Source: Podarcis bocagei
Taxonomy: Eukaryota
Direction: 5' to 3' (one strand)
Assembly (NCBI GenBank): GCA_964188305.1
Contig: OZ076888.1
Length of the DNA: 64,000 nt
The position numbers and the translations under genes are program-made. The notes below the pieces were generated by a model. The model had not been told where the DNA came from and did no database searches. It was given only the letters and a program-made list of their open reading frames with translations. Below, in pieces: positions 1 through 64,000 of the stretch (positions within the stretch are counted from its first letter, which is position 1; each line of letters begins with the position of its first letter).

Positions 1-72
1 CTTTCCGCTTCAGGGAATGAGGCTTGGATTGGTGCGGTGGTGACCAAGCTGAGGTCTTGGTTGGGGCCGTGA
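1..72 (+). CDS. C-terminal fragment of element-encoded SGNH/GDSL hydrolase (5' part lies outside the window)
   Basis: Frame 1 reads LSASGNEAW..., matching the helix after the SGNH block V DxxH motif (H-L-S-x-x-G-N). Its position just before repeat B matches the SGNH ORF at 62749. Confidence 0.6.
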   Translation, partial: LSASGNEAWIGAVVTKLRSWLGP

Positions 73-639
73 GTGGTTTGGCGGTGAGCTGAGGGCTCCA
101 TGGCGGTTAGGCACTGGTTAAATTGGTGCTTGGAGGGGTAAGTGCCTACCCCTCCAAATGATGCGAATGGGAATTCCGTTAAAGGAAATCCAGGGGCTTG
201 CCATTCTTTCGTCCTTGTCCCCGGAGTCGGACTTGGGCCGTGCAAGCCCCACAGGAACATGAGGGTGAGAAGTAATGGTCTGGTGCCCAGCTTTATTTCT
301 CACCCAATACTTGTTTCCCACGCTGGCTTCCGCTGGTATCCGGAAGGCCAGCTCTGTCCCTGAGGGCAAGGACAGATAGTCGGAACCAGTGCCTAAGCAA
401 CCACTCACATTTTTGTATTTGAATAAAGTTGTGGCCAAAATTATGCCAAAAACCTTAAACAAAAATTGATGTGTGAAGTGTGAATTATTGGGGGGCTACT
501 GTGACTCAACACGCAAAGCGTGTTCTCCCTAGCAGAGAGCACGTGTTGCGGTTGGGAACAGGCCACCCTCCAGTGACTAGGCAAATTTAGTTGAATCCCG
601 ACCATTTAAATGGTTAAACTGGGTTGCTGGGGTGTTTTG

Positions 640-710
640 ATTGTTGCCAATTCGGAGGAGGGGTCAGAGTCTATATATACAGGGGCCAGACGTTGGCACG
701 GCCTCTTGGC
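640..710 (+). promoter_or_regulatory. Putative Pol II promoter in Ngaro repeat A (CCAAT, TATA, pyrimidine initiator)
   Basis: CCAAT 647-651, TATATATAC 672-680, CCTCTT 702-707. A TAAATAC followed 20-21 nt later by CCTCTT is kept in the diverged A copies at ~58716-58750 (+) and ~53636-53670 (-). Confidence 0.55.
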
Positions 711-2305
711 CATTTTGCATCGGATCACCCGCCCTCCCTCCCTTTAATAGGGGGGTATTTTATTTAAGCTGATCGCTTGACCTTGCTATGCCTGTCATGG
801 TGTCGTTCGCCTTGGTGCGGGGGCACGGTAGGAATTTTGCCATCTGGCTGATTGGCTGGTGCCATTTGGTTTTTGCCTACTGCGTAGCAAATCGTCACAA
901 CTTGTAAGGTTGGCGGTTAGGCACTGGTTAAATTGGTGCTTGGAGGGGTAAGTGCCTACCCCTCCAAATGATGCGAATGGGAATTCCGTTAAAGGAAATC
1001 CAGGGGCTTGCCATTCTTTCGTCCTTGTCCCCGGAGTCGGACTTGGGCCGTGCAAGCCCCACAGGAACATGAGGGTGAGAAGTAATGGTCTGGTGCCCAG
1101 CTTTATTTCTCACCCAATACTTGTTTCCCACGCTGGCTTCCGCTGGTATCCGGAAGGCCAGCTCTGTCCCTGAGGGCAAGGACAGATAGTCGGAACCAGT
1201 GCCTAAGCAACCACTCACATTTTTGTATTTGAATAAAGTTGTGGCCAAAATTATGCCAAAAACCTTAAACAAAAATTGATGTGTGAAGTGTGAATTATTG
1301 GGGGGCTACTGTGACTCAACACGCAAATAACTCCTACCAGAAATTTTGTCTAAAACAACAACAATCCACCTCATGCTATTTTTCCTTTTCCAGTAGCTGC
1401 CTTTTGAGCAGTACAGACCACCTGGTGACCATTTGCAAACTCAAAATAATTAGCCTTCAATTATTGCCAAGGAAATTGTCACCTGTTCTGTTTGCAAATC
1501 GCTGGCACTTTTGCCTTCCCCAATTAGTGGTGTTTACAGCCATCCCCTACTGGGTTGGAAGAGAAATAGGCAGCCTTCAAGCTAAGGAATGGTTGCTATT
1601 TACCAGTGTTTACATTCTGAATTATCCTGCTGGGATGTTTTTGAGGCACACATTGCAGTGGGTGGCCTGGAGGTGGTTTTATTACAAATGGAGAAGATAA
1701 AATTATTATTCATTCATGTCCGGGTTAGGTATACCTATCTTGTAAGTCTACAGAAATGAAATCACAAAAGCATGGGACTGCAAAGAACTGAAGGGTCATT
1801 TCGCCTAGCCCCTCTGCTTCAGGGCCCAATCAGAGAATAGTTGCATTGCAGAAAGGTGTTTTTTCTAACCAATTGTTCCAGATTTGTCTCTTATTGCTAC
1901 AACTGCTAAGAGTGCTGACATATTACACAGGCTCCACCCCTTTAAGAATAGAATGGACCTTTTCACATATTATACAGGTGCCACCCCTTTGAGAAAAGAA
2001 TGGGCCTTTTCACCTTGACTCCTGCTTTTGTAACTGCCAGCCTTGAATTTTTTAATGTCATCTAAATGGGGCTGCCCTTAAACACACCTTCAAAACCTTG
2101 ACTGCCATGGAATGAAGCAGTCCACTATTTTATGGACTGGGAGAATATATTCAGCCTGTATTATGTTAATTGCTATAGCTGCAAGCATGCTTCCAAGGCA
2201 AATTAAAATGGCTACTTTTGACCTTTAAACCCATGCATTGCCTGGAACCCAGATATCATAGTAACAGGAACCCTAGTCTGCCAGCTGTTCATGGTTGGTG
2301 TAGGC

Positions 2306-4287: not shown

Positions 4288-6922
4288 GGTTTTACTGTGT
4301 GCATTAATATTTTTTACATGGGAGTGGCACAATTTTTACTCTCCTACAACCTTTCTTGAATTACTTTTGGTTTGTGTCTCATTCCAGGACCTGTAGCAGG
4401 TGATGGAATAAGTCTTAGTTGCTGTTCTCAAAGGTGTTAGTGTTGCTAAGGAAAATAGATGTAGCTTTCTGGCAAGCTACAAGTGGTTATTTGAATTCAC
4501 CACAGAGAAAAAATATATATCCAACTTTGAGCAGGATTAACATTGACTTTTCAAATAGTTCTGTCTCTTCAGCACTTCCCAAATCACCTCTCTAGGCCCT
4601 ACAGAGCATTATTAATGGCAGAAAATCTCATTATATGATTTTTGCTTTCCTTTTCTGACTGCTGAAGAAAGACTTTCTTAGCAGCTATAAAGGAAAAGAC
4701 TTTTGTTTTCAGGCTGAATTCCTTGTGGACTGTTCACTCAGTGATATGTAAAGATACCTAATGTATAGCGTTTCATAGCTCACAGCACATTTATTTTGTT
4801 TTATTTATTTAAAACATTTTTATACCACTCCCAAAGCAGCTATGATAATAAAAAGAAAGTCCCTGCCATCGGTTTGTAGCTGAAAAGACACAACACCAAA
4901 GAAAAAAGGATAGGGCAGGAGGAGGAAACAACTACCCAGAAACCAGTTCTTAGAGTTGCAATTCTTATAACAACTAGCTGGGATAATAATAGTTGAGGTT
5001 GGCTGATCGGATGGCCATTGTGAGGTGACCGATAAGGCAGAAGAAGAGTCACAGGTTTTTGGCTTGTCAGTGGAGTAACTGATTTTCTTCTCCCCCTCAA
5101 TTGCAGCCTGAAGGAATGGCCACCATAAATCGGGGTGGGGGGGGTATAGACCTAAAATCAAAACATTTAAATCATGATATTTTTTTTAAGAACCAAGATT
5201 TAAAAACAACAACAGCCCGATCCCATTTTGAAATCCATCTATTTCCTGAACCTATAGGCGTACTTACCAATTGATGTAACAATGAAAGCAAATTATTTAG
5301 TTTCAAATCTTTCGCATCTTTATATAATTGACCTAAACCATTGGTTGTAATTTTAAACTTCATGCAGACTGCATGTCCTGAGGAATGAGAATTATTGAGA
5401 GAAAAGACAGGTTTCTGCTTGGCTCTCATATTTGCAAGGACACCAAGCAAGATAGCAAACGCTAAAAACAGTCGGTCTAGTCTGGCAAATTAACAGGATG
5501 ATGAGATGGAGACAGATAATATATATTTGTTAAATATAATTTAAAAAAATTATTTAGCTCACTAGCAGCCGAGTTCTGTGCTGTGCTTGGCAGAGCACTG
5601 GATCATAGAATTTGCCTAAACTGAGAATAGCACATAAGGTTATAATGGTCAGTAATCACGATGGCTGTATACCACCTCCGGTATCTGTGGAAATGTGCCT
5701 ATAAATATCAGTTGTTGAAAAACGTGAGAGATCTGTTGGACTCACTGCAGCTTCTGAGCTTCACATATGCATTTGGTTGGCCCCTGCGAGGCACAGCTTT
5801 GGCAACCCATGGCTTACACGGTCGACTGGCAAGAGATAAAATAGTAAATTTATTAAAACAACGGCGGAGAAATGCCCAAGAACAAATAAGAGACAAAGCA
5901 GAAAGATGAGGAATAGAGAGAGATACCAGGCAACAAAGAAACTGAGCAATTCAGAGACTGAGCAGGAGAATACACAGATAAGCAGGAATGCATTTCAAGG
6001 TAAAGCATAGAATCTCAAGTGGAACGAGGAAAGAAAATATAACCTGTGAGAAATGGAAAGTAAAGAAATATAATCATCTTGGCATGCAGAAAAAAATTAA
6101 AGCAGATGGTAGGATTCAAAACAACAAAGGAAACTATTCCAACCTCTTAAAAAATAGAGTCTGCAGCCTTGCTTGCGTCAGATACTCATGTCCAAGTACT
6201 AACAATGACCTGAGATAGTGAGGACAGATGGCTAGCCTAGTGGCTTTTTCACCAGCAACCAAAATAGGGGATGTCAGAGCTCTGTAGCAAGCAGAATAGA
6301 AATGGCTCCATAAATCATCTGATTCCTAAGACCAGATGAATTCTGGGCTGTGGCACAATTGGTATACCTTAAATTGAATTTTGCCCCCAACCTCTGATCA
6401 GTGACCTCTGACCCAGTGCCTGGTTTAAGACCCATTGTACCTTTCCCTCCCACCAGATATCTTTATTGAAAGTTACAAAGTACATAATTATATGTGCACT
6501 AAACATGGTGAGACGTAAATAAAAGAGGGAGAAAGAAAAAGAGAAATAGCACCGGTGTAGAAGGGAAAGTAAGGGGGGGGACCCCAAAACTGTAAACTTT
6601 ACAAAGTTGTTATTCTACTTCACCTGTTACAGTATTTGTAAGAATGGATTCCAAATATCACTGAATTTGTCCATGGCAAGTCTGCATTTATATGCAAGTT
6701 GTTCATATGTTGTGAGCTTGTATTAGCCCACAAACCAATTATAGAAGGGAGCCGCACTTTTATTTTTTTTCAGTTCATCTGTATTGGTCTTTCTGCTGTG
6801 GTAAGGGCACGGAGAGTTCACTCATATTGTTCTTTTGTAAGGTTTCATGTGCTGGGTATATAATTCAAAAGGATATTTTGCTCCGTAAATGTAAGGTTGT
6901 TCTGTACAGTTCTGTTGATAGT

Positions 6923-7759
6923 TTGTTGTTGTTTGGTCATTTAGTCGTGTCCGACTCCTCATAACCCCATGGACCAGAGCATGCCAGGCACTCTTGTCTT
7001 CCACTGCCTCCTGCAGCTTGGTCAAACTCATGTTAATAGCTTCGAGAACACTGTCCAACCATCTCGTCCTCTGTCGTCCCCTTCTCCTTGTGCAGGAGAC
7101 CCCAACATCAGGGTCTTTTCCAAGGAGTCTTCTCTTCTCATGAGGTGGCCAAAGTATTGGAGCCTCAGCTTCAGGATCCGTCCTTCCAATGAGCACTCAG
7201 GGCTGATTTCCTTAAGAATGGATACGTTTGATCTTCTTGCAGTCCATGGGACTCTCAAGAGTCTCCTCCAGCACCATAATTCAAAAGCATCAATTCTTCG
7301 GCGATCAGCCTTCTTTATGGTCCAGCTCTCACTTCCATACATCCCTACTGGGAAAACCATGGCTTTAACTATACGGACCTTTGTTGGCAAGGTGATGTCT
7401 CTGCTTTTTAAGATGCTGTCTAGGTTTGCCACTGCTTTTCTCCCAAGAAGCAGGCATCTTTTAATTTCATGACTGCTGTCACCATCTGCAGTGATCATGG
7501 AGCCCAAGAAAGTAAAATCTCTCACTGCTTCCATTTCTTCCCCTTCTATTTGCCAGGAGGTGATGGGGCCAGCGGCCATGATCTTAGTTTTTTTTAATGT
7601 TGAGCTTCAGACCATATTTTGCACTCTCCTCTTTCACCCTCATTAAAAGGTTCTTTAATTCCTCTTCACTTTCTGCCATCAAGGTTGTGTCATCAGCATA
7701 TCTGAGGTTGTTGATATTTCTTCCGGCAATCTTAATTCCGGATTGGAATTCGCCCAGCC
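6923..7759 (-). mobile_element. BovB (RTE-clade) LINE, 5'-truncated
   Basis: ORF 7028-7579 (FLGSMITADGDSSHEIKR..LLGRKAVANLDSILKSRDITLPTKVRIVKAMVFP..YGSESWTIKKA..RIDAFELWCWRRLLRVPWTARRSN) is the BovB RT C-terminus; typical 3' end GTCGGACACGACT with (ACA)n tail. Confidence 0.95.
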
Positions 7760-27926: not shown

Positions 27927-29062
27927 CTGAAACACACAAAAACAATCATTATATCACAAAAATAATCATGATATCACTGTCCATCTACTCATTCACAAAA
28001 TATAGTAAAAGTTAAAAGTGAGATAGGGTTTAATATAAGTTGACTACATTTGGCACGATCTGTATTGGAAACAGAAGCTTCACTATGGTTCAGTTCAAGA
28101 CGATAAGTTGGAGTCACATTAACCCAATGTAAACTGGGTTTGAATGTACAGCACTGTGGGAACAATTCCTCAAAGTAAATAAAAAAATTGGAAAACAATG
28201 GACAGATTTCCCACAGTGTTTTTAAATGTGAAGAGATCCACCAGGGGGTGGGGGGAGGGGGGAGCAGAGCTGTGGGTGCTATTAATGCTCTCCGTTGCTG
28301 TTTTCCCCATATATAAACTCTCTCTGTTGAAACAGTATTAGATCTGTGCATCAACACATACATTGGTCATATTCACACCATATATTTAAAGAATCCTGGA
28401 TGCTGTAGTTTAAGGGTGCTGGGAATTGTAGCTCTGTGAGGAGTGGACTACAGTCCCCAGGATCCTTTGTGGGAAAGTTAAATGATGACTGTTAAATTGG
28501 CAGAAATGTGCTATAAATGCACGGGGTGGATGTGACCATGCTTGTGTGCTTACTCTCAAAGAATAAACAGCAGCTCAGGAGTGATTACATAATGCAGAAA
28601 TCACAGGGAGGGTTAACACACTTGCAGCATTGCCCCAATCTGAGCCCTGCAGCTACATTTGCAATTTCAGAAAGGCCTTGATGAGCCCTCTACATGTGAT
28701 ACTATTAAAGTACATTCAAAGTGCTTTCCCCTTCCCTCAAAGAATTCTGGTCACTGTGGTTTGCTAAGGTGTTGCTGGGACATGTAAATTAGTGTGAGGT
28801 AAACTACAGCAACCTGAAACCTTTGAAGGAGGCAAATGTCTTTTAAAGGTATAGTGTGCATGCATCCATAGATGTCCCTACATTATGTCTATTTCACTAC
28901 TCTTTCAGTGGTTTTCAGATAAAATGTACACACAAACCTAAGATTTACACATTGTGGGTGCCATTGCACCGGTGTGTTTATAACTGCACTTTGAGACTCA
29001 TCAAAGCCTATATTACAATAACAAATCAAGCAGAAGGAAAGTAGTTAAATACAAACAGGAAC

Positions 29063-29745
29063 CTTTTTTAAACTTTGCAATAGAACCGAATAATGCAGCA
29101 GACAGTTTTGAACATGCTAGTGGCAAAGGAACTGTGTCATGATCCGTGTGGTGGGCATCAGCGCAGTATTCACAAAGCAGTTCATGGTCATCAAGACAGT
29201 ATTTTGAGATCATTGAATCACCATGGATCAAACAGTTTCTTTCTTCCCAAACTTCGTCACTGATTTTGGCATAGACATGATTTTGGTATGAAATATCCTG
29301 GTGAAAGTTCCTCAGGCAAAGATTACAGTAATTCAACTGACATGTCACACATCTCTTGGTGGCCTTCCGGCGCTCGTCACAAAGTTGGCAATAAATTGGT
29401 AGCCGGCTTCTGTCAAACCTCCACCGCAGAAAACCGTATCGGCGCATATATTTCCTGGCCAATCTGGCTCTTAGGTAATTCATCCTCAGCTGGATTTTCT
29501 TAGCAAACGGAAGGCAGTGGGCTTTGTTGCAAATGGGGCATGTGATGATGAAGAAGTTCTCTGTGATCTCAGCCTGAAGTTGGCTCTTCATTATGCACTT
29601 ATCACAAATGCAGTGATTGCATGGCAGCATAAAAGGTCGGAGAAACAGCTCTTGGCACAAAGGGCAAATAAGCTGGTCAAGAAAAGCATGTCCCGATGAT
29701 TCCTTATCCAGCGAAATGACAGATGAGTTGCTTATCAACTTGCGT
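29063..29745 (-). CDS. TRIM42: TRIM42 coding exon 2 (RING, B-box1, B-box2)
   Basis: atgctcag|A CGC...AAA G|gttcct, phase 2/1; C3HC4 RING CPLC..FMLPCNHCICDKC..ENFFIITCPIC; WRFDRS; two B-boxes. Confidence 0.97.
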
Positions 29746-29860
29746 CTGAGCATAAAAAACAACAACCAAGAAAACTTTCAGTTGTAGAGAGTGAAGCCAC
29801 CAACATTCATAATTACCCAACTTGTAATATGTCCTTATGTTATGAGTAATGCTTGGCTGT

Positions 29861-36103: not shown

Positions 36104-37811
36104 CATGCCATCCTCTTTTATATCAGTTTTGTGCCTGGCAAAGGCCTTCTTATTTTTCCAGGCCTTTTAAATTATGCTATGGGTCTTAATATTGTTTTAG
36201 CTGCATTGTTGTTGTTTCATTCCTCTGTTCCCTGCTTTTAATTTATCTGCCTTGATCTTAATTGGTGTGTTTTGTTTGCTGTGTTTTATTGTAACATGGT
36301 TTTCTAATCTTACTGTTTTACTCTGTAAGCCACCCAGATAACTTTTTGTTGTGGGACAACCTATAAATAGGATGCATGAATAAATAGTGACATTATTTCA
36401 TTAGCATTTTTGAATTAATGCAGGAACAGTATTTCAGTTTTTGCATTCCTGTTTAGTGAACTTCATACTCCAAATCAAAATACTTGGAGAGGAGTTGAAG
36501 CTTAATGCCCCCTTTCTTTGAAATCTGCATCGTGACTGCAGCTTAGGGGTAGATAATGTGTTCTGTGTACAGAAGGTACCAATTTCAATGTCTGGCATCA
36601 CTAGTTATAAAAGCTTTAGGTTGCATGTACTGTGAAAGATCTCTTCCTTAGACCCTGGACAGCCACTGCCATTTGGAATAGATAGTACCCACCCTGGCTG
36701 AAACAGCCACCTAAATAGTGGAAGTTTTTAGTGGCAGTGGTGGAACACTGATGCTTCCCTTGTCTCTCTCTTAAGTTGTCTAGCTTATCTGTTTGCTGGT
36801 TGCTCCTTCTCTCACTTGTTCTCCTGTGGGGGAAAGTGACTATGGCTGTCTCTAATCCACTGTTTCCCCACCCCAGAAGGCAATGGCAGTGGCACTATGT
36901 CAAGAGTAGTGCCATTGCCATTGCTTTCAGGGAAAAGGTTTAAAAAACCACAGGGAATCTCTATGGATAAAAACAACTCCACAGGATTCACATTCCACTG
37001 GCTGGAAGGTGACTGAACTTGCCCCTCACTACCCCTCCCCCACATGGTAACTTTGAAAATGTAAGTTCGGTGGATCCATGCAATTTGAAACCAATTTCCG
37101 AATGGTCAAATAGTTTCTTCCTTTTTTATACTTTGATTCACTTCCCACCACCAAGTTCTTCTTAAGTCAGTTGCGTAGTTCTCAGTAAAGGTCGGCTTGG
37201 CTTGCAGAACTGGTTGCATTCTGAAGCAAGGTTGACAAGCTCATAATTCTAATTAATAGTTTGTTGCTAGAGGGTGTCACTGCAATTGCCATAGGTTCAT
37301 TGAGTTTGCATGCTTTTTTATCATTGCTTTAGCACTTCTTTCAGGCATGTCTGTGGTGCCTACTTTTCCTGAGTCAGAATCATGAAATCACTAAAACTGA
37401 AGTTCAAAATCTTTCGTTGGATCTTGTGCTTTTGCACACCAAGGCCTCCTGCATAGAAACTTCTTGTAATCATTGGTGATAGAAGCTCTGTTGTGAAGAG
37501 CTTTCCCTCAGAAGGACAGATGGATGGAGGCATTTTTCTTTTCAAGTGTTTAAGGTTGCTATACCAACTAGATGTTTTATTTACTGTCATATTCATAGCT
37601 GTAACACTCCAGCTCGTCACTGAATCAAGGCTGAACTTCTGCTGCAAAGCGAGGCATGATGCCTTTTTTTTTTATTCATTCTGCATATTTAAAAATGGAA
37701 TTTAGAAGTGTCTTGTTGGCAGCTAAGTGCAGAAGAACACTGCACTGCAGGACACAATTTGAGACACAGATGTGGAAATTTGCCCTTACGGTAGGGATGG
37801 GCAAGCCTTCT

Positions 37812-42004: not shown

Positions 42005-42146
42005 TGAATCATAGAATCATGGATTTATAGGGACAACAAGGGTTGTCTAGCCCAAACTCCAGCAATGCAGGAATCTTTTGTCCAACATGAGACTCAAACC
42101 CACAACTCTGAGATTAAGAGTCTCATGCTCTACTGACTGAGCTATA
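42005..42146 (-). mobile_element. tRNA-Lys-derived SINE with CR1-type tail
   Basis: Minus strand ATAGCTCAGTCAGTAGAGCATGAGACTCTTAATCTCAG is tRNA-Lys(CTT)-like but degenerate; (ATTCTATG)-type tail. Confidence 0.7.
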
Positions 42147-51100: not shown

Positions 51101-53013
51101 ATCTGACCCCCAACCCATAACAATATCAACCGAACCCTATTGGATTCAACAGCTGCCACACCAATGCACTCCATACTCCCAGGCATAATATTACTTTGGG
51201 ATTGCTCTGTTAGTTTAGTCAGGAAAAAAGATAAAATCATAAGCCACATTTGAACTCTTTGGAATTGACCTCCTAGAAAAACGAAAGTTACATGCTTCCA
51301 CCAAACCTCTTTAGTCCCAGTTGCACAGTAATGTTGACACAGCCAATAATCTCTCTTTTTCTAATCTGTTATCTAATCAGCTGTCCTCTTTCTAATCCAT
51401 CAAGGAAGCATCAGTACTGCATTCATACTGTAACCTAGACAAAGGTTACTTTCCTTGATATGCATCCTTCATTTTAGTGCCCCTGCATTTTAGATATGAT
51501 CATCTTTCCAATGTTTATTAAATCCATTTTTAAAATATATATATATATATTCTTAGCTATTTCTCAGATTAACCAACATTGCACATTTTGAAATGTTGAC
51601 CTCTTAAGGACTAAAAACTAATGACTCCAGAAAACGGGAGAAACTTGACTAAAAATACTTGACTTTTCTCTTCTCTCACTTCTGCTTATATTTTTAGCTT
51701 GTGGAAAGGTTTTATTATGCAAAAGATTTACAATGGGCTATAATGTTATGCATATAAATATTTTCACTATCCACTAGCTCAATAAATGGGGAAAAATGTT
51801 TTTACTGCTCTGGAACTGTATTACATACCTTAATGTAATTACCTTAATAATATTACAAAATCGTTTTGCAAAGGTATAGAAAATTAAAAGGAGAAGTGAT
51901 AGGAACACAACATTATATTAGCCCTTAGCAAAACAGCAACAAATACTGGGGATATTATGGTTTGCATAGTCATGTGATTAGGCTTTCTTGGTACAAAAAA
52001 GTAAATTGTGCTTCTAATTATTTGTTTTGGGTTTATTAAGGTGAGCAGAGCAAAGGATTGCTCATGGTTATTTAAAAGGATTTACTGTGAATATGTTTAT
52101 ACCAATTAGCAATGTATTTGACACATACAATTTTAACATACTAACAGTGCAATCTTAGCCATGTGTTCTCAGAAACAAGCCCTAATGAGTTCAATGAGGC
52201 TTACTCTCATGTAAGTGGGGCTGGAATTGTTGCCTAAGAAAGTGTGGTATGAATATTAAATCTAATCTAATTTTCTCTAAATTAACCAGATTCCTGAAAC
52301 TACATTGCACTTTCATGACATTTGTAGTAGGGTTGGCATTACTGTCAATCACACAATAGAGGCAATTGGGCTCTCAGTAGCGGTACCCTCTAACATCAAA
52401 ACATTCTTTAGATTACTTATTTTGACACCAAAAATTTTGGGTTATGTCTAAGTTTACTCAGAGTAGACCCATGGAAATGCATGGACATGGGTAAATTATG
52501 GAACTCTCTTCCTGCAAAGAAGCATCTGGCATCTTCATTATACAGCTTTTGATGAATGCTGAAGATGCATCACTTAACCCTGGCTTTTGAAAACTTCAGA
52601 TGTATATTTTTGGGACTCACCTTATTACTGTGATTTTAACTTGTGTTACATTGTTTTTAGTAACTCACCCTGGGACTTTAGGGTGAAAAAAAAAAACCTG
52701 CTACTGCTACTACAAACTTAAGTCCGTTTCAGTGAGTGTACCCCAAGTAGAACTTATACACAGTCCTATGTTTTTTCACTGGAATTTAGGTGAGCCAAAC
52801 CATGACACGGGAGATGGTAGTCATAACAAACTAAACTGAATGAGGCAATTGCATAGGGGAACTCTCAGCAGTTCTCACTGGAGTCTGCCCAAGCATTGAG
52901 TGACATGGACTTCCCAGACAAAACTGGACCGCCTTTTCCATGCAGTAGTATCTACCTATAACAGGACCCATCTTCCACAAACCTGTTTGTCGCCTTCTTT
53001 GGAGCCAATACTT

Positions 53014-53824
53014 GCTTGTCGAGGTCCCCAAGACACCCCAAATAAAAACACAATAACACTTAATTTTGTTTAAGGTTTTTGACATAATTTTGGCCACAAC
53101 TTTATTCAAATTACAGCAATGTGAGTGGTTGCTTAGGCATTGGTAGCACTAACTAACCCCGCACGGGGACAGCTCTGACATTCACACACCCCGCGAAGTC
53201 AGCAAGGGTAAGTCACCTGGGGAGAGAGACGGGACTGGGAACAATGCCTCACCTCTCCCCAGAATGCTCCCAGGGGCTTGCGTGGCCCTAGCCCCTTGCC
53301 AGGGGGTTTCGGACAAAAGCATGGGGAGCCCCTGGGTTCCTTTAACGGAAAACCCTTGCAGCAGCAGCAGCATTTTGGAGGGGCAGGCACAGCCAAATCC
53401 ATACCCCTCCACCAACCAATTTCCAAACCAATGCCTAACCGCAACCTTACAAGTTTTAATGATTTGCTACGCAGTAGGCAAAAACCAAATGGCACCAGCC
53501 AATCAGCCAAATGGACAAAATTCCTACCGGGCCCCTGCCCCAAAGCAGACGACCCCATGACAGGCATAGCAAGGTCAAACAAACAGCCTAGCATTAGGGA
53601 AGGGAGGGCAGGTGATCTGAAGCACGCAGCGAAAAGAGGAAGTTTGTCGCTGCGTGCAATGTATTTAACAAATAGGGCTGTCAATCAATAAACGGCAACA
53701 TATAAATTTCCCCAGTAACAGCCCGCCCCTGCTTAAAAGATGGCCAAACCATCAACAACCAGCAACAGTGAGGTGTCTCGTCAGCCCCCACCGCAACACG
53801 TGCTCTCCATGAGGGAGAACACGC
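53014..53824 (-). mobile_element. Solo A-spacer-B remnant of a Ngaro-type element
   Basis: Collinear with 518-1324 (GCGTGTTCTCCC start, spacer, B repeat, AATAAAGTTGTGGCCAAAATTATG); no coding sequence. Confidence 0.85.
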
Positions 53825-56800
53825 TTAAACAGATAGACAAATATATTGTGTGATGGATTTCAGTTGTACCCACCCTTCACAACAGAATTATTCTGGACAT
53901 CTGGAGTCTCTGAACCTGATTCAAAATGAATCTAGTTTCTGGATCAAGGTGTCACCATGAATAGAGACTTTACAGAATTCTGACTGGATAGTTTGAAAAT
54001 AGGAAGCACAGTGTTGTTCTGACTTATGATTGAATGCATGTGAAAGAGTCATAGAACACACACACACATATGCTGATCTGTACCTCCATTCAGACAAGGG
54101 ATAGACAGTTTTGTGCAGTCAGAATAATTCAGTGACTGTGTGAACATACAACTTTACGCTGCATCTGGTGGTGGTATGAAGAATGGGAAAGGGAGGGGTT
54201 GCATTATTTTAGGATAAAGAATACCTTGCACAAGAAAAGGGATGCTTTGAGGAGGGCACTAAAGCTTTCCATGTGTAAAATGTTTTGTCTGTTGGAAATA
54301 TTCAAGCGTGGAACTCTTTCTCTTTCCTTGGTCATCTGAAATGCTACAGTCCAGGAAAAGCTTACCCATTTGATTCTGCTGAGTGTATGAACTTGGCTGT
54401 ATGCTGTGTCATATCTTCAAGCAGATCTCAACCCCCAAAATCTGGTGCTGGGTCTCCTTATAAGAGGCAAAAAAAGTATGGTAGATGCAGTGGTCTAACA
54501 CTCAAGCATATCAGATGCAATGCTCTAATATTCATTCATGCCTCTTTAATTACTTCAAAAGCAGTTGGACCAAAAATGTGTTTATAAAATGCAACACAGA
54601 GACCCATGCTATAAGCAGGTTGCCAATATTACTTCAGTGTGTAATCATAATTTGTCAATACTTGTTTTAAATGAAAACAACTTTTTAATTAAAAATATCT
54701 GACTGCCTGACAATATGTATTGGAAAAATGTAAATAATGTATACAAATTGTTAAGTGCAGGGATAAAGTATATGTGAGTGTTTGTACATATATAATTTTC
54801 TAGGCTATTTTCAGTAAGGAACTGAATGCAGTTTATAAGAAGAAAAATAAACATTGCACAAACCTGAGCATTCCACATACAAATTACTTTGAGTGCTTGC
54901 ATCACCTCAGTTTGTGAACTATTTGTATTGCAAGTAAATCTAATAGCAATAAAACGAGACAGGTGTCTTTCTGTCTTCTTAAATGAATAAATAAAATAGG
55001 CAAGCAACAACAGTGGCATCACACTGTTAAGGCACAGATGTGTTTAGCAATTAATAACATAAACACCAATAGCTCTCAGTGATGTAGTGTTATGATTTAA
55101 AAATAGCAGACTTCATTTATATGACAGGCAAGGAAGTGTCCCTTAAAAAATGCTTCTCTGAGTTACAAATGATAATGTTGCTTAATGCATCTGATCACTC
55201 CGAGGATGATAGGAGCATTTTAGGACTTCTGATTACTCCTAGGATGATAATAGTAAATCCATGATTCTTGGCACATCATGAGCTTAGACCCCGCAAAGCT
55301 ATGTGGATTTGCTATGGAGTCTTGCGCACTAGGAGACATAACCTGTAGAGACTTTACTGGCATGTTCCTAGGTTGTCTCATATGACATCAGGCATGGAAG
55401 TGTTCGAGCCATGGGTGTAAAGGAAATTGTAGTTGTGGCTTGAATTTTTAATAATTTTAGTGCAAACATCTCCCAATACACTCCTTTTTATATTACATTT
55501 TTGCAAGCAAAGTCCCCTAATATAAAGCATTATATGTTATTTTCACTAATATATGGATTACTATGTACATTTTCCCCAACACACATCTTTTTGTTCACAT
55601 TATTTGGTTGGAGAACTGTATCACACTTATGAAAGTCAAAGGATAATTTGCACTTCAATTCACATATTGTTTCAGGAAGTTTGAATTACAAATGCGAACT
55701 GAACCCAATTTCTCTCCCATCCCTATTACTGTCATTTCTCTTCTCTCTTTCCCAAAGTCAACCTGCCCACTTTATTTTGGGGAGTGGGAAGGTAGAGGCA
55801 GATGTGACCCCCACACACCTGCCATAGTGCATTTTCATTCCAAGAACTGGCACAGGAACTACAAGCCCCGGGATCCTCAGTGGGAAACCAACACCCACTG
55901 TTGTTGTTTTTCTTTGAGAAGATGTCAGTGTTAATTTCCTGTTCTATTCTAGAGTTTGCAGTTCCACTCCTTGGTGAGAAAAGATGGTCCTGCAGGTATA
56001 CAGGGAAACCCACTGCTGCTGAGTGAGCTTCTTCTACATAATCCTTCTTCAAAATAAGCTTGGAGCCAGCAGCAGTGATGGCAGGTGCTGCCAGGTTATT
56101 TCAAGTATTTGAATCAAACATTCAACAAGCCTCTTGAGGAAAGTTCTCATCCCTAGTCTTTCTCCCTCTCTCCCTTAAAGTCTAACAGACTCCCACTTAC
56201 ATCTCTTTTCCTTCCCCACCTTAGGATGAAGCCTAAGCCCTCTTCAACTCATGGATATTCCATTAGTCCTCGGGAAATTACTTTAGCTTCCTCAGAATGC
56301 AGATAGATGCTTCAAGTTACCAGGCTTTGGTGTTTTCGTCAACGTTCAAAGTCACTTTGAATTGGCGATGGATTATTACTGTATATTTGTGAATCTATGT
56401 GTCAAAGATTCCATATAGGAGAAAGGCAAAACACTATCCAGTAGAATAATAAGATGTGATAGAGCACTGTGAAGAGGATGATTGATTGAATGGAGAACGA
56501 CACAGAGACAGAAAGATGTAGCACTCTGAGAAGTGGAGACAAATGCAAAAGAAAATGGAATATATTAAGGGGAAGAACAACATAATTAGAACAATACCAT
56601 GTGATAAGAACTTAAATTTTCATATTGCTTTCCACTCCTGACCTCTTTGCAAACACCTCAAAGAGAACCCATCACTCACTCCTAGAATTCAGTAATCTCT
56701 AAGGTGAAGGCGAGGGGGAAACACAGGCTACGGAAATGTTGTAAAGTGAGGTAAGGTGAGGTGGGGGACTGAAAGGAAAGGATTATATGCAGAGGGAAAA

Positions 56801-59799
56801 GGACACAACTTAATACCTAATACGAGAGTAAATGTCCAAGCCCTTCATTTTAATAAGTAAATGGATAAGGTAGGTAAACATGTGACAGTCTACTGCATGA
56901 GATAAAAGACAGCTAAAGCTTCAGGGAACAATGTATTTCACAAGGACTGCCAACCCTCTGCCCAAACCAGTTTTATATCCTACATTCATAATTTTGAAGC
57001 ATGGCAAATTGATAGAACAACTGTAAAGACAAAACATTATGAAGACTTTTTTTGGGAGAGAGATATGAAAAACTCTGGTGTAAAACCTATTGAATTTCAC
57101 AGGATGTGCTTCTGAGCAGACATGATTGGGATTGCAGTATTAATTTCTGCTGCTGGTTTTGCTATTTGAATTTTATTTAGATTTGTCTCTTGATTTATTA
57201 TACTCAACACTGTTTTGTTGCATTAGTTTATTTTAAGATATTGTAATCTGCCATGAGCAAGAATTTTGCCTAGAAAGGTGGGGTATTTACATTTTAATAT
57301 AAATGTGCACATATTCAGTAGCGCCTTCTCATTAGTGACTGCAGCCTAGTTCTCAAAATATCCAGTCACTTAAAGGCAACATTGAGGATCCCTCTCCACC
57401 TCCAAAAGTAAATAATTATAAATGCATGTTTGCACTAAGCGGTACAAGTAAATATTCAACACATGTAGGTACAAAACAGTGGTGCTTCAGACTGATCTGC
57501 TTTGTGTCCAGTTCAGATCTTACTGCATATAAAATTGTGCTAAGACAATATGAATAGCTTTGATGGATGAGGCTGGTGGTGATCGCTATATATGCAACAG
57601 ATGTAGATAATAGATGTTATTATGTTCAAGAACACAGTGCATGGAAGTATCCTATGAAATGTTGTTCACAGGCTCGTTTTGGCATTCTGTATTCCATCAC
57701 CCACAATTATAGTTATTGATATTCTAACCCTCCATTAGTTAGACTAGATATCCTATTGACCTTTTATGGACCAGCTCACAATTTATCACCACTGAAATAC
57801 AAGCTGTAGAAACCCCCCCTCCCCTTTTGCAACTCTAGAACATTATAAATGAGTCTATTTCCTGTATAAGTCTTATTTAATAGTAAAAAAAGCTTAGACT
57901 CATCCATCTGCTGTCAGTGATACCGGAAGTATGGACATGAATTATGACCTCTTGTGGATGACCCTGAAATCTTCAGATATCGGCTAGCTGGAGATTTATA
58001 GCTGTTTTGTTCATGCATTTTATAATTTAGTAACACCAATAATTCTCTTTTATCTGAAATGAGGCATATAGTGCCTCCAGCCCACTTCATCCCTGCTTCT
58101 ACTGCAAATGTTGCAGGGTGCTAATAATTAAGTATATAACAGCCCTTTTTTACTTAGAGAATCTCTTACATTAAGGAAGCATCACTTATTTTATAGAATA
58201 ACATATCCATAGACATGAAATGTGTCTTATTTTAGACCAAAATGTTACCATGAAACCTCAAAGAGCAGACGCCATAGTGTCCCTTATTTTAAACTAACTC
58301 CCCACAGCATTAGGAAAAAGGTTTTTCTGTTTTCTGAGAATAATAATAATAATTCATTTTATTTCTATACTGCAGTGGAACTTGTGCATTGATGCATCTA
58401 ATTTTCTTTTTCCAATTTTCATGCATTTAAACCCCACCTTTCTTCTGTCATGGAGTCCAAGGTGCTATACATGTGGTTTCAAGGCAGTTACCCATCAAGG
58501 CACTGACCATGCTGTTATTTTATGCCATTAGCCTGCTTTGTACAAGCTAAACTGTGGCTTAAGCATGTTCTCCCTAAATGAGAGCATGTGTTGCGGTTGG
58601 GGAATACAGGCCACCCTGGTGTGATTGGGCAAGTTGGATAACCCAGGCCTTAAGTGGTTAACTGGGTTACTGGGGAGTTTTGTATGTTGCCAATTCGGAG
58701 GAGGGGTTTGGAGCCTTTAAATACAGGTCGCCATTGCTGGGCGTCCTCTTGGCCTTTTTGCACCGGATCACATGGAGCACTGGGACAATCTTCTCATTGT
58801 CTGGTTACATTTCTTTATTTCTTTATTTCCCCTTTCTTTTTAATCCTCTCTAGTCCCTTAAATAATTTAATTCCCCCCTTTTCCTGTTCAATTTCCCACC
58901 CCACCCCTTACCCTGCCCTGTGGGAAGATTCTCCCTGTATCTGTGGCTTGCCTTTACCAATAGTGAGAGAGCCCCCGTTAGGGGCTTTCTTTCGCAAAAA
59001 GGTTTCCCCCATTTCTCTTGTTGAAATTGTGGGGCTAGTCAGGGCTGTTCCCAGCTTAGCTGGTATCACTTTCGTTTATAGTATCCCCGAAGGTTGGCTT
59101 TATGGCTCCCTGTGCCTCCAAGGACTATGAGCACTCTGTATATGCTCTTGAACTATGCTGTTTCTGAACAAGTTTATTTTCTTTAAGTTTGTTTTGCCCT
59201 GATAGTGGCGACTGCCATTTTAGAGATGAGCCATTGTGGCTTGGTGGCTAAAGTGTAGGACTAGGACCTGGGAGACAGGGTTCATATACCCCTCTTAGCC
59301 ATTGTTATAACAAAACAAAACAAACTGCCCCTTATGGGCTATTCTGTTGCTGGGTAGTTCGGCCCATTTGTGATAAAAGAACTTTGGGTTTCTTGAAGGG
59401 GTGCTTCCCTCTAAAAGGGAAGCAGGGGTACCTGGACAAGCTGTGGGCTACCTCAACTCTGCTATTTCAGTGGAAACATTTATGCCTGGCCTAGCAGGTG
59501 ATCCTAGGGCTTTGCCCTAGAATTCTATGGCCTGGAAGCGTTTCCGGCCTCAATAGTGTCCCCATGTGGTCCATGAAGCATTGGTTTCACTGGGTCAGTG
59601 GATAGTGCCGGTAATGCCTAGGTTGCAGGATTGGTCCCTGTATGGGACAGCTGCATGCTCCCCCATTGCTCTACCTGGACACTTAAGTCCTTTTGGTGGT
59701 TACCTCACTGCGAGGGATGTAACGGGCGCCATGTTTGCAATATGCAACTGGGAGAAAGCACCTTTGCGTGCCCGCATTGCAGTTTGCTCTGTGCGTTGC

Positions 59800-60395
59800 A
59801 GAGCACGGCGCTGCACGGGCTGCAATTGCATTGCATTGCTAGGAGATTTGCAGTTGCATTGCACGGAGGGTGTGTGCATTGCATGGAGGGTGTGTGTGCA
59901 TTGCATGGAGGGTGTGTGTGCATTGCACGGAGGGTGTGCAGTGCACGGAGGGTGTAGTTGCATTGCATGGAGTGTAGTTGCATTGCATGAAGGGTGTGTG
60001 CATTGCAGGGAGTGTGTAGTTGCATTGCATGGAGGGTGTAGTTGTATTGCACAGAGTGGTTTTTTTTTTTGTTTGCATTGCCCGGAGTGTGTGTGCATTG
60101 CACGGAGTATGTAGTTGCATTGAACAGAGGGTGTGCAGTGCACGGAGTGTGTAGTTGCATTGCATGGAGTGTAGTTGCATTGAATGAAAGGTGTGTGCAT
60201 TGCAGGGAGTGTGTTTTGCATTGCACGGAGTGTGTAGTTGCATTGCACGGAGGGTTTGTGTGTGCATTGCATGGAGTGTGTAGTTGCATTGCACAGAGCG
60301 TGCTTTTTGCATTGCACGGAGTGTGTAGTTGCATTGCATGGAGAGTGTGTGCACTGCACGGAGTGTGGTTTTTTTTTGCATTGCACAGAGTGTGT
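59800..60395. repeat. Minisatellite of ~20-22-bp units TGCATTGCA(C/T)GGAGTGTGTAGT inside the Ngaro gag region
   Basis: Read directly; produces long overlapping low-complexity Cys/His ORFs on both strands. Confidence 0.92.
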
Positions 60396-60714
60396 GTCTG
60401 AAAAGGAAGCTGGCTTGGCGGCAGCTTGGTTGGGACTTCTTTAGGGGTTCTGGCCAGCGTCGGCCCTGTAAATTTACATATCATGATGGCAGCACAAGAT
60501 GCCCCCTGCCCGAGCGGGGGCTGGAAGCTGGCAAGCAATAGCTCAATACCTTTTGCCCATATTCCCATTTTATTTAGGGATCCAGTTGGATATCGTTGCT
60601 AAAACATACCACTTGGCTATGGAGAAGCTGTCTGCCTTGAAGGAAGTTATTTTGTAATACTTCCTCTGTAGCAAGTGATGCTTCACCAGATCCGATCTTG
60701 CTGGGTCACTTAAC

Positions 60715-61160
60715 TAATCTTCCCACTAGGCCAGGCTGCCTAGATTTCACCCCTCCCATATCCAAGAATCTCCTGAGGAGTCTGCTGATTCTCCAGAGAG
60801 GAGGAGGCGTGTTCTGGTCTCTACTTATTCTGCTCCAGCACCAAATCAGTCAGTCAGTCAGTCAGTGTCGGAGAGAGAGAGAGACTGAGTGTTAGAGATC
60901 ATGTGTAGAGATAAGGCTGCTGCTAAGGACAGCTGCAGACACTCAGTGCAGTGCAGCATTTATTTATGCTTAGACCTATTAAGCTCTGTATATAGTTTGT
61001 ATAGTTGTAAATAGAATAAAGAAGATATTCTACAGAGCTGCTCTCCGAGTTGTTTATATACTCTGCTAGACTCTGCTGTACTCTGCTGTGCGACAACTGT
61101 CTTTTGTTGGAGTGAATCCGGTGCTCACAACTCTAAGCTGTGAGTCCACAGCACTTTGAC
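60715..61160 (+). mobile_element. LTR-like insertion interrupting the Ngaro RT/RNase H
   Basis: Non-coding; (CAGT)n and (GA)n tracts; AATAAA near 61015 then a GT-rich stretch; RT-RNase H homology is interrupted here. Termini not resolved. Confidence 0.45.
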
Positions 61161-63406
61161 CTGTTCATGTGCAGAAGGTGGTCTCTGGAAGTGCTACCCA
61201 GCTCGCCTAGCCCAGTTGGGGCTGAAGTGGATGAGTCCAGTTGGTGGCACTGGCTCAAGGGCGATGCTGACAGAGGTCCCCTTACCTTTTTGTATGCCTA
61301 CCAAGTGTGGTGAAGGCAGATATCAGGCGATGGTAGCAATTCCTGAATGTATGCAATAGTAGTTCGCCATGGCAGGATACCTTGAACCCGCTCAGGGATT
61401 TTCAGGTTCATGCTGGTGCTGCTGGATCTTTGCCCTTTGGTTTTTATTTCAAGGGCTGCTGGTGTGCAAAGCTATGGCCTCAAGCCCTGTGTGGTGAGGC
61501 AATCATGTGACATAACTTTTCTTGAGTTTTCCCCATTGTAGTAGCAGTTCACGTGGCCCGAGGAGTTCAGTGACCATCGGATCTGCTTTTGGTCTGATAA
61601 CCAGGTAGTGGTGAGCGTCTTGGCAAAACAGTCCTCATGCTGTAGCACAGTCTCCGCCCCTCCGCTCATGCTTTCGAGCTGCGCCACTTAAGGTTTAATA
61701 TTGTGCTTTCTACTCTCCAAATTACGCTGACACTATCTGATTTTCAGATGAAGCGCTTCAGATCCTGGGCTCCAGACTCAGCTATTGCCAGACTTTTCCA
61801 GACCTGTGGCATTTTGACAACAATTAGTAATTTCAGAGAGCGGCAGCTTCCATTTCCCCTTCTGCTTTTACCTCTTATGGGAAGGCCTGGATGGATTTCT
61901 TAGCCTTAAGCTGGCAGTTCTCGGCCATTCAGAAGAATTGGCCCCCATCCTCTGAGCAGATCCTGCAGTATTTGGTCCACCTGCTGCAGATTGGGCATGC
62001 GGTTATAACTATCCGAATTCAGTCCGCTGCAATGTCTGTTACATTGAAGCTTTATTTTTCAGAGACCCTTGTATAAAGTTTGCAGTGCGCAGGGCCTTGG
62101 AAGGTTGGAATAGGCTCCAACCTCATAGGACAGTGGGCAGGGAGTCGGTCAATTTTTACCTATGCAGTATCTGCAACAAGTTAAAACTTGTCTGCGGGTT
62201 AAAGATCAAGGTGAGACTCCTTTCAGTAGTCCATTGCATTTTCGCACTGAGGGTTGGGGAAATGGTTGTTGGAGCCAGCACGGGGCTGAGAGTCTGGAGG
62301 CTTATTGCTTCAGGACTTTTCCTTTGGAGCTTGTCATTAGAGTTGGTACCTCTAAAACAGACTTAGTGGGCAGGAGTGCCACAATCAGGCTTCCTGCCAC
62401 AGGTGAGGAGGGCCCTTGCCCAGTTATGGATAACAGAATATTGGCTTTTTATTCCCTGGGGGCTGGCCCGCTCCTAGTGCATGAAAATGGGTTCCCGTTA
62501 GCCCGGCATCAATGTGCTTACATCGTGCACCAGTTATTACAGCCTGCGGCTTGCTTACCGCTGAACACTCCTCATTTCTTACGATTAGGTGCTGCTGCAA
62601 AGGCTGCACACTGGGGGCCTGTCAGTAGACAGGATTGTGAATACGGGTCATTGGAAGTCTGACGCTGACAAGGGTTATATCAGGAAGTGTCACAGTGATG
62701 TCTGTGCTGATGCTTGTCTGTTATTTCCTTTTTTTTTTTTTTTCATAGGAGCAGCTGTGCACATTTGAGCCACAGCATTGTACACTAGGCTGGCAAGCAT
62801 GTTGACGAGTTTGGACTGGGGCGCCATCTCAGTCTTCCTGCCCATGTGAACATATACTGGATGTCCAGATGGGGAATGCTTTGGGAGGAGATCCTTCCTT
62901 TGGTGCGGTCGAGTGTGACCTGTGCAGGTCCTCCCGCAGTGCTGGTGGTACAGCTGGGCGAGAATGTTTGCTGTCTTCCTCCAGCATAAGTTTGCATTCC
63001 TGCATGCAAGAGGGCTTGGATTGAGTTGATGGCAGCTCTCCCTGGACTCAAAATAATTTAAGGCATTGGTTCAAGGTGGTTTGGAGGGGGGGTTGGAGCA
63101 CCTGTCCCCTCCAATGCGCAAAGATGTTCCATTAAGGGAATCCAAGGATTCGCCATGCTTTTGTCGACCCCTTTTGAGGGGTAGGGCCATGCAAGAGTCC
63201 CTGGGAGCATTTGGGGTGAGCTTGAGTCTGATCCTGGTTCATTGCTCCCCCATGCTGTTTACTGGAACTGACGATATGGTGGGGCCCAGTCGTCAGTGCT
63301 GCCCTGCTGAGGTCAGGTGCAGCTAGTCGGGAACCAATGCCTAGACAAACTACCACCGAGCAGGCCAGAAAGCATGTTAATAAGGCGGTGGATAATAGAA
63401 TAAAAT

Positions 63407-64000
63407 AGGATCGGGGCTGCCACGACTGCAGCACACTGGGGTCTGTCAGCCGACAGAATAAAGGATCTGGGTCGCTGGAAATCGAACGCGTTTAAAAGTT
63501 ATGTTCGCTAACATTTTGGTATGCTTATATTTTGTTTGCTTGTTTATCCCAGGTTTAGCGGCTGTCCGCATCTGGATGGTGTGGCACAGTATCGTGCATT
63601 GGGCTGGCATCAGAACCCGGCAGTCCGGATTGGGAACAGGTCTCGGCCTTCCTCCACATGTCCACTTGTCTTGGCTGTCCAGATGGGGAATGCGCTGGTC
63701 AGAGTTCCTGCCATTGATTCGGAGGCAGATGTTTTTGGAAGGGCCGCCCACGGCTATTGTGGTGCAGCTGGGTGAGAACGACCTGGTTTCCATGGACTGT
63801 TTTTCTTTACGTGCGGCAATCCTGGGTGACCTGGAGGTGCTGCGGTCTATGATGCCGTCAGCAAAAATTTTTTGGTCAAAGCTTTTGCAACGACGCGTTT
63901 GGAGTGGCAGTCGTTGCCCAGCCGCCACCGAAAGGGCCAGAAAACGTATCAATTCTGTGGTGTCGAAAAAGATTTTGGAGCTGGGTGGTGATGTGATTTC
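63407..64000 (+). mobile_element. Second, better-preserved Ngaro-type fragment (YR C-terminus plus SGNH ORF), running off the window
   Basis: 63407-63511 encodes RIGAATTAAHWGLSADRIKDLGRWKSNAFKSYVR* (catalytic R, W, Y region of a YR), followed by an open SGNH frame. Confidence 0.88.
63501..64000 (+). CDS. Element-encoded SGNH/GDSL hydrolase, 3' incomplete; omitted by the ORF track because no stop lies in the window
   Basis: MFANILVCLYFVCLFIPGLAAVRIWMVWHSIVHWAG...LSRWGMRWSEFLP..GPPTAIVVQLGENDL..KIFWSKLLQRRVW..ERARKRIN; blocks I (xHS), II (G) and III (GxND). Confidence 0.75.
   Translation, partial: MFANILVCLYFVCLFIPGLAAVRIWMVWHSIVHWAGIRTRQSGLGTGLGLPPHVHLSWLSRWGMRWSEFLPLIRRQMFLEGPPTAIVVQLGENDLVSMDCFSLRAAILGDLEVLRSMMPSAKIFWSKLLQRRVWSGSRCPAATERARKRINSVVSKKILELGGDVI

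Follow-up and report, generated by a model that had tools for sequence, protein, structure and literature searches.

Retrotransposons with split direct repeats must read through the poly(A) signal of one repeat copy (B1), stop at the identical signal of the other (B2) and start reverse transcription. For DIRS-1 the primer of reverse transcription is stated as unknown (PMC7192593). A stretch of 64 000 nt from Podarcis bocagei (contig OZ076888.1), called the window here and numbered from its first letter, raises the question of how one repeat could serve at both places. A preliminary description of the window had noticed a repeat of ~290 nt at 107-396, with two diverged copies further along, that appeared to fold into an undescribed domain of structured RNA or single-stranded DNA, and had offered packaging, priming or strand transfer, suppression of the B1 poly(A) site, or catalysis as its role. 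We asked which element carries the repeat, whether and on which strand the fold is conserved, and what flanks it at its two positions.

The element and its repeats

From its sequence we identify the region at 101-1327 as the end repeats of a young non-autonomous Ngaro (tyrosine-recombinase) retrotransposon, order DIRS. Self-BLAST of the locus (L031) returned split direct repeats laid out as A1-ORFs-B1-A2-B2, the arrangement given for Ngaro elements of the hydrolase-bearing vertebrate type (PMC9210276; PMC4157794). All features lie on the plus strand unless stated. B1 (101..517; self-BLAST and repeat search) is 417 bp long and identical to B2 (911..1327), which has its core at 917-1206 and AATAAA at 1232-1237 and forms the right end of this copy, element 1. 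Repeat A2 (509..728, 220 bp, with a TATA-like box at 672-679) is 99.5% identical to A1, which lies 5.9 kb upstream of A2 and outside the window, the left end of the element being ~5.9 kb left of the window. A unique spacer C (729..910) separates A2 from B2. The window opens within the 3′ end of the SGNH-hydrolase ORF of element 1 (1..72, stop TGA 70-72), located by tblastn of an intact relative's hydrolase on L031.

B1 and A2 meet in an inverted repeat, AACACGC-AAA-GCGTGTT (508..524, no strand assigned), which we infer to be the recombinase site; the outer ends of elements 1 and 3 and of solo units break at the same AA. The junction at 507-557 can also fold as a nested hairpin round the AA crossover, with other sequence in locus L199, which makes it a possible folded single-strand recombinase site. 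Where repeat A ends, and at A2 only, four CCC runs follow immediately, separated by 1-2 variable bases (728-742), perfect in 121/166 copies counted, overlapping loci included. They form a G-quadruplex motif on the minus strand and are readable as GC boxes too.

Element 1 has no gag match, and its RT, YR and hydrolase genes are broken remnants only. Over the 290-nt core of B, each of the 40 genome matches that were scored, out of 1355 candidates, is 100% identical. Broken protein genes together with this identity indicate a young family that is moved in trans, and retention of the core in such young, protein-defective copies points to a role in cis. Intact relatives (L246 and L248) have A1 and A2 identical over 223 bp, B1 and B2 identical over 368 and 385 bp, respectively, and four long ORFs. 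In intact relatives, Pfam gave RVT_1 above cut-off in 3/4, phage-integrase families below cut-off in 4/4, Lipase_GDSL_2 below cut-off in three ORFs, no match to rve (DDE integrase), and no methyltransferase family among 13 ORFs. The group thus shows the features by which Ngaro is recognised: split direct repeats, RT/RH and YR ORFs without a DDE integrase, and an SGNH hydrolase after the YR without a methyltransferase. With identical A and B pairs in the young copies here, the likeness to Ngaro covers both architecture and ORFs. Among named proteins, those nearest to the hydrolase come from Podarcis and Zootoca, which points to a lacertid-like host, and 2492 hydrolase relatives were found at E<=0.001 among cluster representatives, genomic context not included. 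The element itself is an ordinary Ngaro.

A multibranch fold in repeat B

The core domain comprises the 5′ 290 nt of B (107..396) and was defined from folds, family alignments, pair tables, a null test and a newly found family. It is closed by stem P1 (107-119/384-396) and contains P2 (130-140/147-157), a helix Pc (168-171/317-320) that closes P3-P5, P3 with the loop GUUAAA (174-177/184-187), P4 (193-201/242-250, 211-214/235-238 with a conserved U-G, and 217-220/229-232), P5 (255-259/312-316 and 263-271/297-305), and the optional hairpins P6 (322-352) and P7 (353-376).

The arms of the closing stem are exact reverse complements in all three copies of the window, where the preliminary description placed them, and the TGGAGGGG..CCCCTCCA hairpin, the TTCC-N6-GGAA hairpin and the third stem were likewise found in each. 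The folding z-scores of copies 1, 2 and 3 are -7.9, -5.4 and -5.1, and 0 shuffles matched any of them; for the reverse strand of copy 1 the score is -7.8. Covariation of the closing stem had also been claimed from these copies, and there one internal pair does change on both sides (C-G vs U-A), but only that one. Three copies alone are weak evidence of covariation; the larger set described below supplies the support. The reported distance of ~25 nt from the core to AATAAA fits copies 1 and 2, whereas in copy 3 the next AATAAA is ~56 nt away. The CCAT(T/G)CTTT motif is common to the four closer families only; the three more distant families differ there.

We collected B copies by searching the genome (1.6 Gb) with three B copies and five hydrolase proteins. 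This gave 341 B copies, from loci that partly overlap, in 38 clusters at 93%, or seven families with 169 distinct sequences; alignment identity between the families is 46-69%. Common to all seven are P1, P2, P3 with a GUUAAA-type loop, P4 with its G-C/U-G/C-G helix, and P5. Pc was found in 6/7 families and P6/P7 are optional: P6, P7 and the UAGUC before the closing stem are missing from the L199/L246 family, which has intact ORFs and identical B1/B2. The 541 pairs drawn on the reference copies are 509 Watson-Crick, 29 G-U, 1 A-C and 2 other.

The likenesses of UAGUC to a group I S motif and of GUCC to a hairpin-ribozyme motif were dropped after their partners proved not conserved and Rfam was negative. 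A pseudoknot between UGGCG and the CCAU loop was also dropped; CCAU stands in differing helical contexts and is paired in the eighth family.

Rfam 15 searched with the window at gathering score gave nothing but one tRNA-like match at 42 kb (42087-42144, minus strand), probably from a SINE, and the five matches to six loci at E<=1 all fell outside B and C. No description of RNA structure in Ngaro repeats was found in the open-access literature searched. Thus the proposal that the repeat holds an apparently undescribed structured domain held up, with covariation beyond a relatedness-preserving null, no Rfam family and no account in that literature. The fold is demonstrated inside one genome. The B motif had 0 matches in viral contigs, the hydrolase profile gave four candidate stretches there, none confirmed, and 12 metagenome matches to the spacer motif were judged chance, all being without flanking similarity or hydrolase.

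Covariation and strand

Counted within the seven families, 19 pair types are doubly compensatory, against 5.1 ± 2.1 in the null (0/1000 as high); for pair types common to two or more sequences the count is 11 against 2.3 ± 1.4 (0/1000). The null permutes the 3′ partner columns among pairs of the same letter, so that relatedness is kept. Broken pair types number 146, and 124/1082 paired columns are variable vs 183/864 unpaired ones. The helices were drawn by hand, each family on a single reference copy, while the alignments could be seen, and this biases the comparison towards the observed count; the model was therefore put to an out-of-sample test on an eighth family, found after the model had been fixed. 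A pattern for the changed 3′ arm of P1 had 581 matches (control 0), and of 30 loci read, 28 belong to this family and one to a further family. Read by eye, the eighth family has swaps at pairs 1 and 7 of P1 and at one C5 pair of the spacer, and keeps P2, Pc, P3 and P5-P7 with new sequence. P1 pair 7 is swapped in part of the copies, while others keep an A-A mismatch, and RNAalifold on the decayed copies of this family recovered only part of the model. In a further count 96.2% of 680 cells are paired and four pairs change both sides, with 57/500 shuffles as high.

This speaks directly to the reading in which the hairpins are neutral by-products of GC-rich repeats. Many decayed copies do break pairs, as such a reading expects, and the 146 broken pair types belong on its side of the account; it leaves unexplained the covariation above the null, the out-of-sample family and the persistence of one topology at 46-69% identity. 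The null test and the eighth family have already largely refuted it, and we regard it as very improbable. We take the RNA fold of the core to be real and well supported, in an element of a known class.

Folding energy was rejected as a guide to strand, since both strands score alike: the reverse strand folds similarly, and the minus z-score is better in 3/7 references. Substitutions are more telling. A Watson-Crick pair has become G-U in 78 cases and A-C in 44 (p 0.036 for shared types, 0.041 for single types), P1 pair 8 occurs as U-A, U-G and C-G, and on the plus strand every near-invariant wobble of C1, C3, P4b and the long-range helix is a G-U. The fold therefore very probably forms on the sense RNA, and of the two earlier options, structured RNA or single-stranded DNA, the G-U bias favours RNA of the plus strand, leaving DNA less favoured. 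A fold that acts in the single-stranded minus-strand cDNA, as a template-switch or recombinase substrate, would agree with the single-stranded cDNA given for DIRS-1 (PMC7192593) and with the similar z-scores of the strands, minus being better in those three references. It would sit poorly with the 78 vs 44 bias on the plus strand, with the path from U-A through U-G to C-G in P1 and with conserved wobbles that are G-U on that strand, and we consider it improbable.

Partners of the poly(A) signal at B1 and B2

In 31/31 true pairs (one inverted arrangement was dropped) B1 and B2 become identical 3-8 nt ahead of the P1 motif, so the left edge of B coincides with the foot of the P1 closing stem. 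The stretch after P1 is paired from outside by two unrelated flanks, the hydrolase stop-codon region at B1 and, with a shorter arm, the end of spacer C at B2, and both arms change with the family. The functional unit is accordingly larger than first drawn: the core at 107-396 stands, but the hydrolase tail and spacer C, both outside B, had been missed.

At B1, the 5′ arm of helix P0 (69..78; outside B, B1 only) pairs with 399-408 in the fold of 60-470 and in co-folds of 36 B1 copies. A B1-only cassette seen in the alignment (86..106) contains hairpin P0a (86-89/95-98, 98.5% of cells paired) and a second conserved UGGCGG (101-106). The B1 poly(A) signal (422..436) consists of AATAAA and the invariant GTTGTGGCC, with a GU-rich stretch ~45 nt downstream. 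In families F4-F7 the B1 helix is 25-30 bp long and extends through the final codons of the hydrolase to take in the first 3 nt of AAUAAA, so that AAU is reached in four families. A 12/12 partner for the 12 nt that end in AAU is present in 33/37 distinct B1 copies vs 0/13 B2 copies (F4-F6), and this helix shows the exchanges G-U/G-C, A-U/G-U and A-U/G-C. In the window family and F3, 9-11 of the 12 are paired at B1 and 8-10 at B2. Opening energies, computed for 26 elements, are mixed: the first four hexamer bases cost more to open at B1 in 21/26, and the whole AAUAAA in 11/26, with 0/6 for the window family and 0/5 for F3. Suppression of the B1 poly(A) site, one of the roles first proposed, is in this way backed by strong pairing in three distant families plus the eighth, but by none in the window family when judged on the whole-hexamer opening energy. 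That the pairing lowers use of the B1 site is a prediction to which we give slightly under an even chance.

At B2 the partner is spacer C (~180 nt), which is unique and more conserved than B (alignments, pair counts and folds). It forms a junction of C1 (783-790/883-890), C3 and C4 (800-804/822-826 and 806-810/817-821) and C5 (827-832/876-881 and 840-842/867-869), the last arranged around a U-rich internal loop (833-839/870-875). A 10-nt arm at 894-903 is complementary to bases starting at the last A's of the B2 hexamer, and the resulting long-range helix (894-903/1236-1245) has a probability of 0.57-1.0 in 7/7 natural contexts and 98.9% of cells paired in 21 spacers; it covers the last one or two A of the hexamer. 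Across the spacer helices 97.3% of 731 cells are paired and 2/35 pairs change both sides; the long-range and C1 helices are nearly invariant and therefore yield no covariation.

Between its two stems C5 sets 3-6 U opposite 3-8 U in 21/21 spacers, with only three opposed U in three families. Beside the U tracts are a C-G at one end and, at the other, two G-C pairs that an A-G and one more position separate from the U run. The probability of C5 reaches at least 0.9 in just 4/7 full contexts and is 0.15 in the window element, yet it appears in the fold of 700-1270; in the eighth family one of its stem pairs is swapped. C5 lies 360-400 nt upstream of AATAAA, and is predicted to be brought next to it by the long-range helix; the low-depth reads showed no poly(A) end. 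The U-loop may join the poly(A) tail in a triple helix, a suggestion we make tentatively. An Sm site in the same loop was rejected, not being conserved.

A TATA box in A2 upstream of C and B2 (672-1260) leaves room for a possible 550-nt RNA that is almost all structure, and every solo unit would encode it.

Related copies in the window and genome

Copy 2 of the preliminary description (53133-53438) is the core of a solo A-C-B unit of family F2 (53012..53826). It has AATAAAGTTGTGGCC at 53106-53092 and so lies on the minus strand, and its long-range arm in spacer C has decayed. No upstream B is present inside ~1.5 kb in 21/21 F2 copies with a detected B. Solo AB units are given for Cafeteria (PMC8547959) and, as the SIRE of VIPER with a unique internal stretch, in a second report (PMC6681497). 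An A2-C-B2 follows B1 in only 60/128 hydrolase-anchored loci that have a B1 (L094-L233). Together with the many solo A-C-B units, this suggests that the two identical junctions are where a circular intermediate, or integrated copies, become resolved.

Element 3 (58561..64000, plus strand) shares its non-autonomous family with element 1, to which it is 94% identical over 4.9 kb; it ends 580 bp beyond the right edge of the window and has a single B, 88% to B1. Copy 3 of the preliminary description is a relic B core of family F1 (63061-63343) that follows a truncated hydrolase remnant (62765-62965; together 62765..63343, plus strand). The relic core is carried inside the non-autonomous family, in element 1 too, with 99-100% identity among 40 scored copies. 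In L031 it lies at 6728-7011, and a second partial copy of its 3′ half, at 7244-7350, precedes the second hydrolase ORF of element 1. Element 1 thus reads as a chimera to which two or more Ngaro families contributed.

A minisatellite rich in TGCA, with units of 20-23 nt (59831-60391, and L031 3403-4073), occupies the place of gag/RT in the non-autonomous family. One hydrolase subfamily is concentrated on contig C19 (most of the 150 matches listed), as expected of a W-type or heterochromatic chromosome. The window also holds a RING/B-box (TRIM-like) exon (29013-29777, minus strand) and a long RT ORF, probably of a LINE (37635-39656, plus strand).

Transcripts

None of the sequencing runs found to contain the sequence is on record as RNA. 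Four raw RNA runs were aligned to L031:7400-8910 (6-12% of each was read, and 75-134 reads were placed). The placed reads are mostly 90-99% alike with partial fit and so come from related families. Provided that the two bulk libraries are stranded in the usual way, their coverage of B and C is sense-biased; over the hydrolase it is near zero. Four reads join the spacer to B, and in a related family 25 reads continue beyond the poly(A) signal. At this low depth there were no sharp read ends and no poly(A) ends, the latter sought among the loose ends listed (17 others were unlisted).

A proposed context-dependent 3′-end module and its alternatives

The layout of the repeats requires genomic RNA to pass the B1 signal and end at B2. 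We propose, with somewhat better than even confidence, that repeat B is a two-state 3′-end module whose state would depend on context, giving read-through at B1 and a protected or marked end at B2. P1 closes 290 nt and thereby brings the flank upstream of B next to the poly(A) signal. The hydrolase tail, at B1, would pair up to the signal and partly mask the hexamer, probably allowing read-through. At B2 the spacer arm would leave the start of the hexamer open and clamp the bases behind it, and the new poly(A) tail would be set beside the U-rich loop, which is shaped like an ENE (element for nuclear expression), and probably held there. Only RNA ended at B2 would have the complete C+B domain, which could serve as a protected end and as a tag for reverse transcriptase. 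Six observations underlie the model: the Ngaro architecture, the core fold with its covariation, the differing partners at B1 and B2, the conserved U-rich loop, the B edge at P1, and retention in protein-defective copies. For its extensions our confidence is lower. That C+B2 is a binding place of reverse transcriptase or Gag seems to us an even bet, and that DNA synthesis is self-primed from the folded-back 3′ end is doubtful. More speculative still, C+B2 might be a 500-nt origin of reverse transcription in which poly(A) is docked in an ENE-like triple helix, RT is bound via the four-way-junction core and synthesis is self-primed, the same core being switched off at B1 by the hydrolase tail.

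Retroviral psi, CTE and RTE are packaging or export elements and offer a different model for the core. As a packaging or nuclear-export element the core would merely be closed by the outer pairings, and the choice of poly(A) site would be set otherwise. Retention in cis by protein-defective copies, the conserved four-way junction with a GUUAAA/GGUAGA loop that resembles a protein or tertiary contact, and the mixed hexamer-opening energies would all suit that role; the B1-only helices of 25-30 bp that end inside the hexamer, the invariant helix behind the B2 hexamer and the match of the B edge to P1 would have no explanation. We think this role unlikely. A ribozyme that cuts or joins RNA would account for the compact four-way junction and its few conserved unpaired bases, but Rfam was negative (window at gathering score; B and C of six loci at E<=1), P6, P7 and UAGUC are dispensable in an intact family, and no sharp ends were seen in the low-depth reads. 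Catalysis, among the roles first suggested, thus received no support, and we hold it to be improbable.

The main job could instead be to start DNA synthesis, the 894-903/1236-1245 fold-back, trimmed or cut, priming minus-strand cDNA, with B2 rebuilt from B1 in each cycle. DIRS-order elements are without a known primer, and a 3′ hairpin is suggested for DIRS-1 (PMC7192593). The invariance of the helix fits. So does the homogenisation of B1 and B2, which reaches as far as the foot of P1, takes in subfamily changes of its 5′ arm and implies a DNA end or a template switch there. Against it, the helix closes on a C-C mismatch and lies upstream of where cleavage is expected, so that the 3′-OH would need trimming, and a plus-strand primer at the B1 edge accounts for the boundary equally well. 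We judge this quite unlikely as the main job. Another version, P1 as a primer/primer-binding pair, was rejected: in ten loci with a P1 wobble or mismatch the B2 5′ arm was corrected in 0/10 and equalled that of B1 in 10/10. Unlike an invariant, primer-restored site, UGGCGG with the P1 arm covaries with its partner in cis, and it is missing before B2 in F5. From the earlier suggestion of priming or strand transfer, then, the B left edge at the foot of the closing stem remains as support, while copy-back of the primer-binding-site kind was rejected. The two-state module is the reading that we carry forward.

Comparison with known elements

The B of the hydrolase-bearing Ngaro DIRS-53_XT of Xenopus is 152 bp (PMC9210276), vs 368-417 bp here, so the domain in its present form and size is not universal. 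Two retroviral systems (PMC2645353) resemble the proposed module: the HIV-1 polyA hairpin is RNA structure masking AAUAAA at one of two identical repeats, and in HTLV-1 a folded spacer of 276 nt, like the ~280-nt fold here, brings distant sequences together at the 3′-end signal. What sets the present case apart from both is a masking arm supplied by sequence beyond the repeat (the hydrolase tail), a fold placed upstream of the hexamer, the position of both repeats near the 3′ end, and masking that is a prediction. Like repeat B, DIRS-1 has a non-coding 3′ cis element of a YR retrotransposon, an internal complementary region with a proposed 3′ priming hairpin; it differs in its inverted repeats, in that the region acts after first-strand synthesis, and in that no multibranch domain is described in the part of the report cited (PMC7192593).

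ENEs occur in KSHV PAN, MALAT1, and plant and fungal transposable elements including Arabidopsis Evade, whose ENE binds poly(A) and blocks deadenylation; the cases named in the cited portions of the two reports are plant, fungal, viral and mammalian lncRNAs, with no vertebrate retrotransposon (PMC13541005, PMC12501189). C5 is unlike these in the conserved A-G at the base of its loop, in having as few as three opposed U, and in being set in a four-way junction that a long-range helix connects with the poly(A) site, and its triple helix is hypothetical.

The present work offers an RNA model backed by covariation, with named helices and two context-specific outer shells round a fold without an Rfam family, and it points to an ENE-like motif in a vertebrate retrotransposon. 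The questions of passing B1 and of starting reverse transcription both become testable with short RNAs and reporters. If the C+B2 origin is real, YR retrotransposons with split direct repeats would gain their first mechanism of priming, and a vertebrate retrotransposon would be shown to have an ENE.
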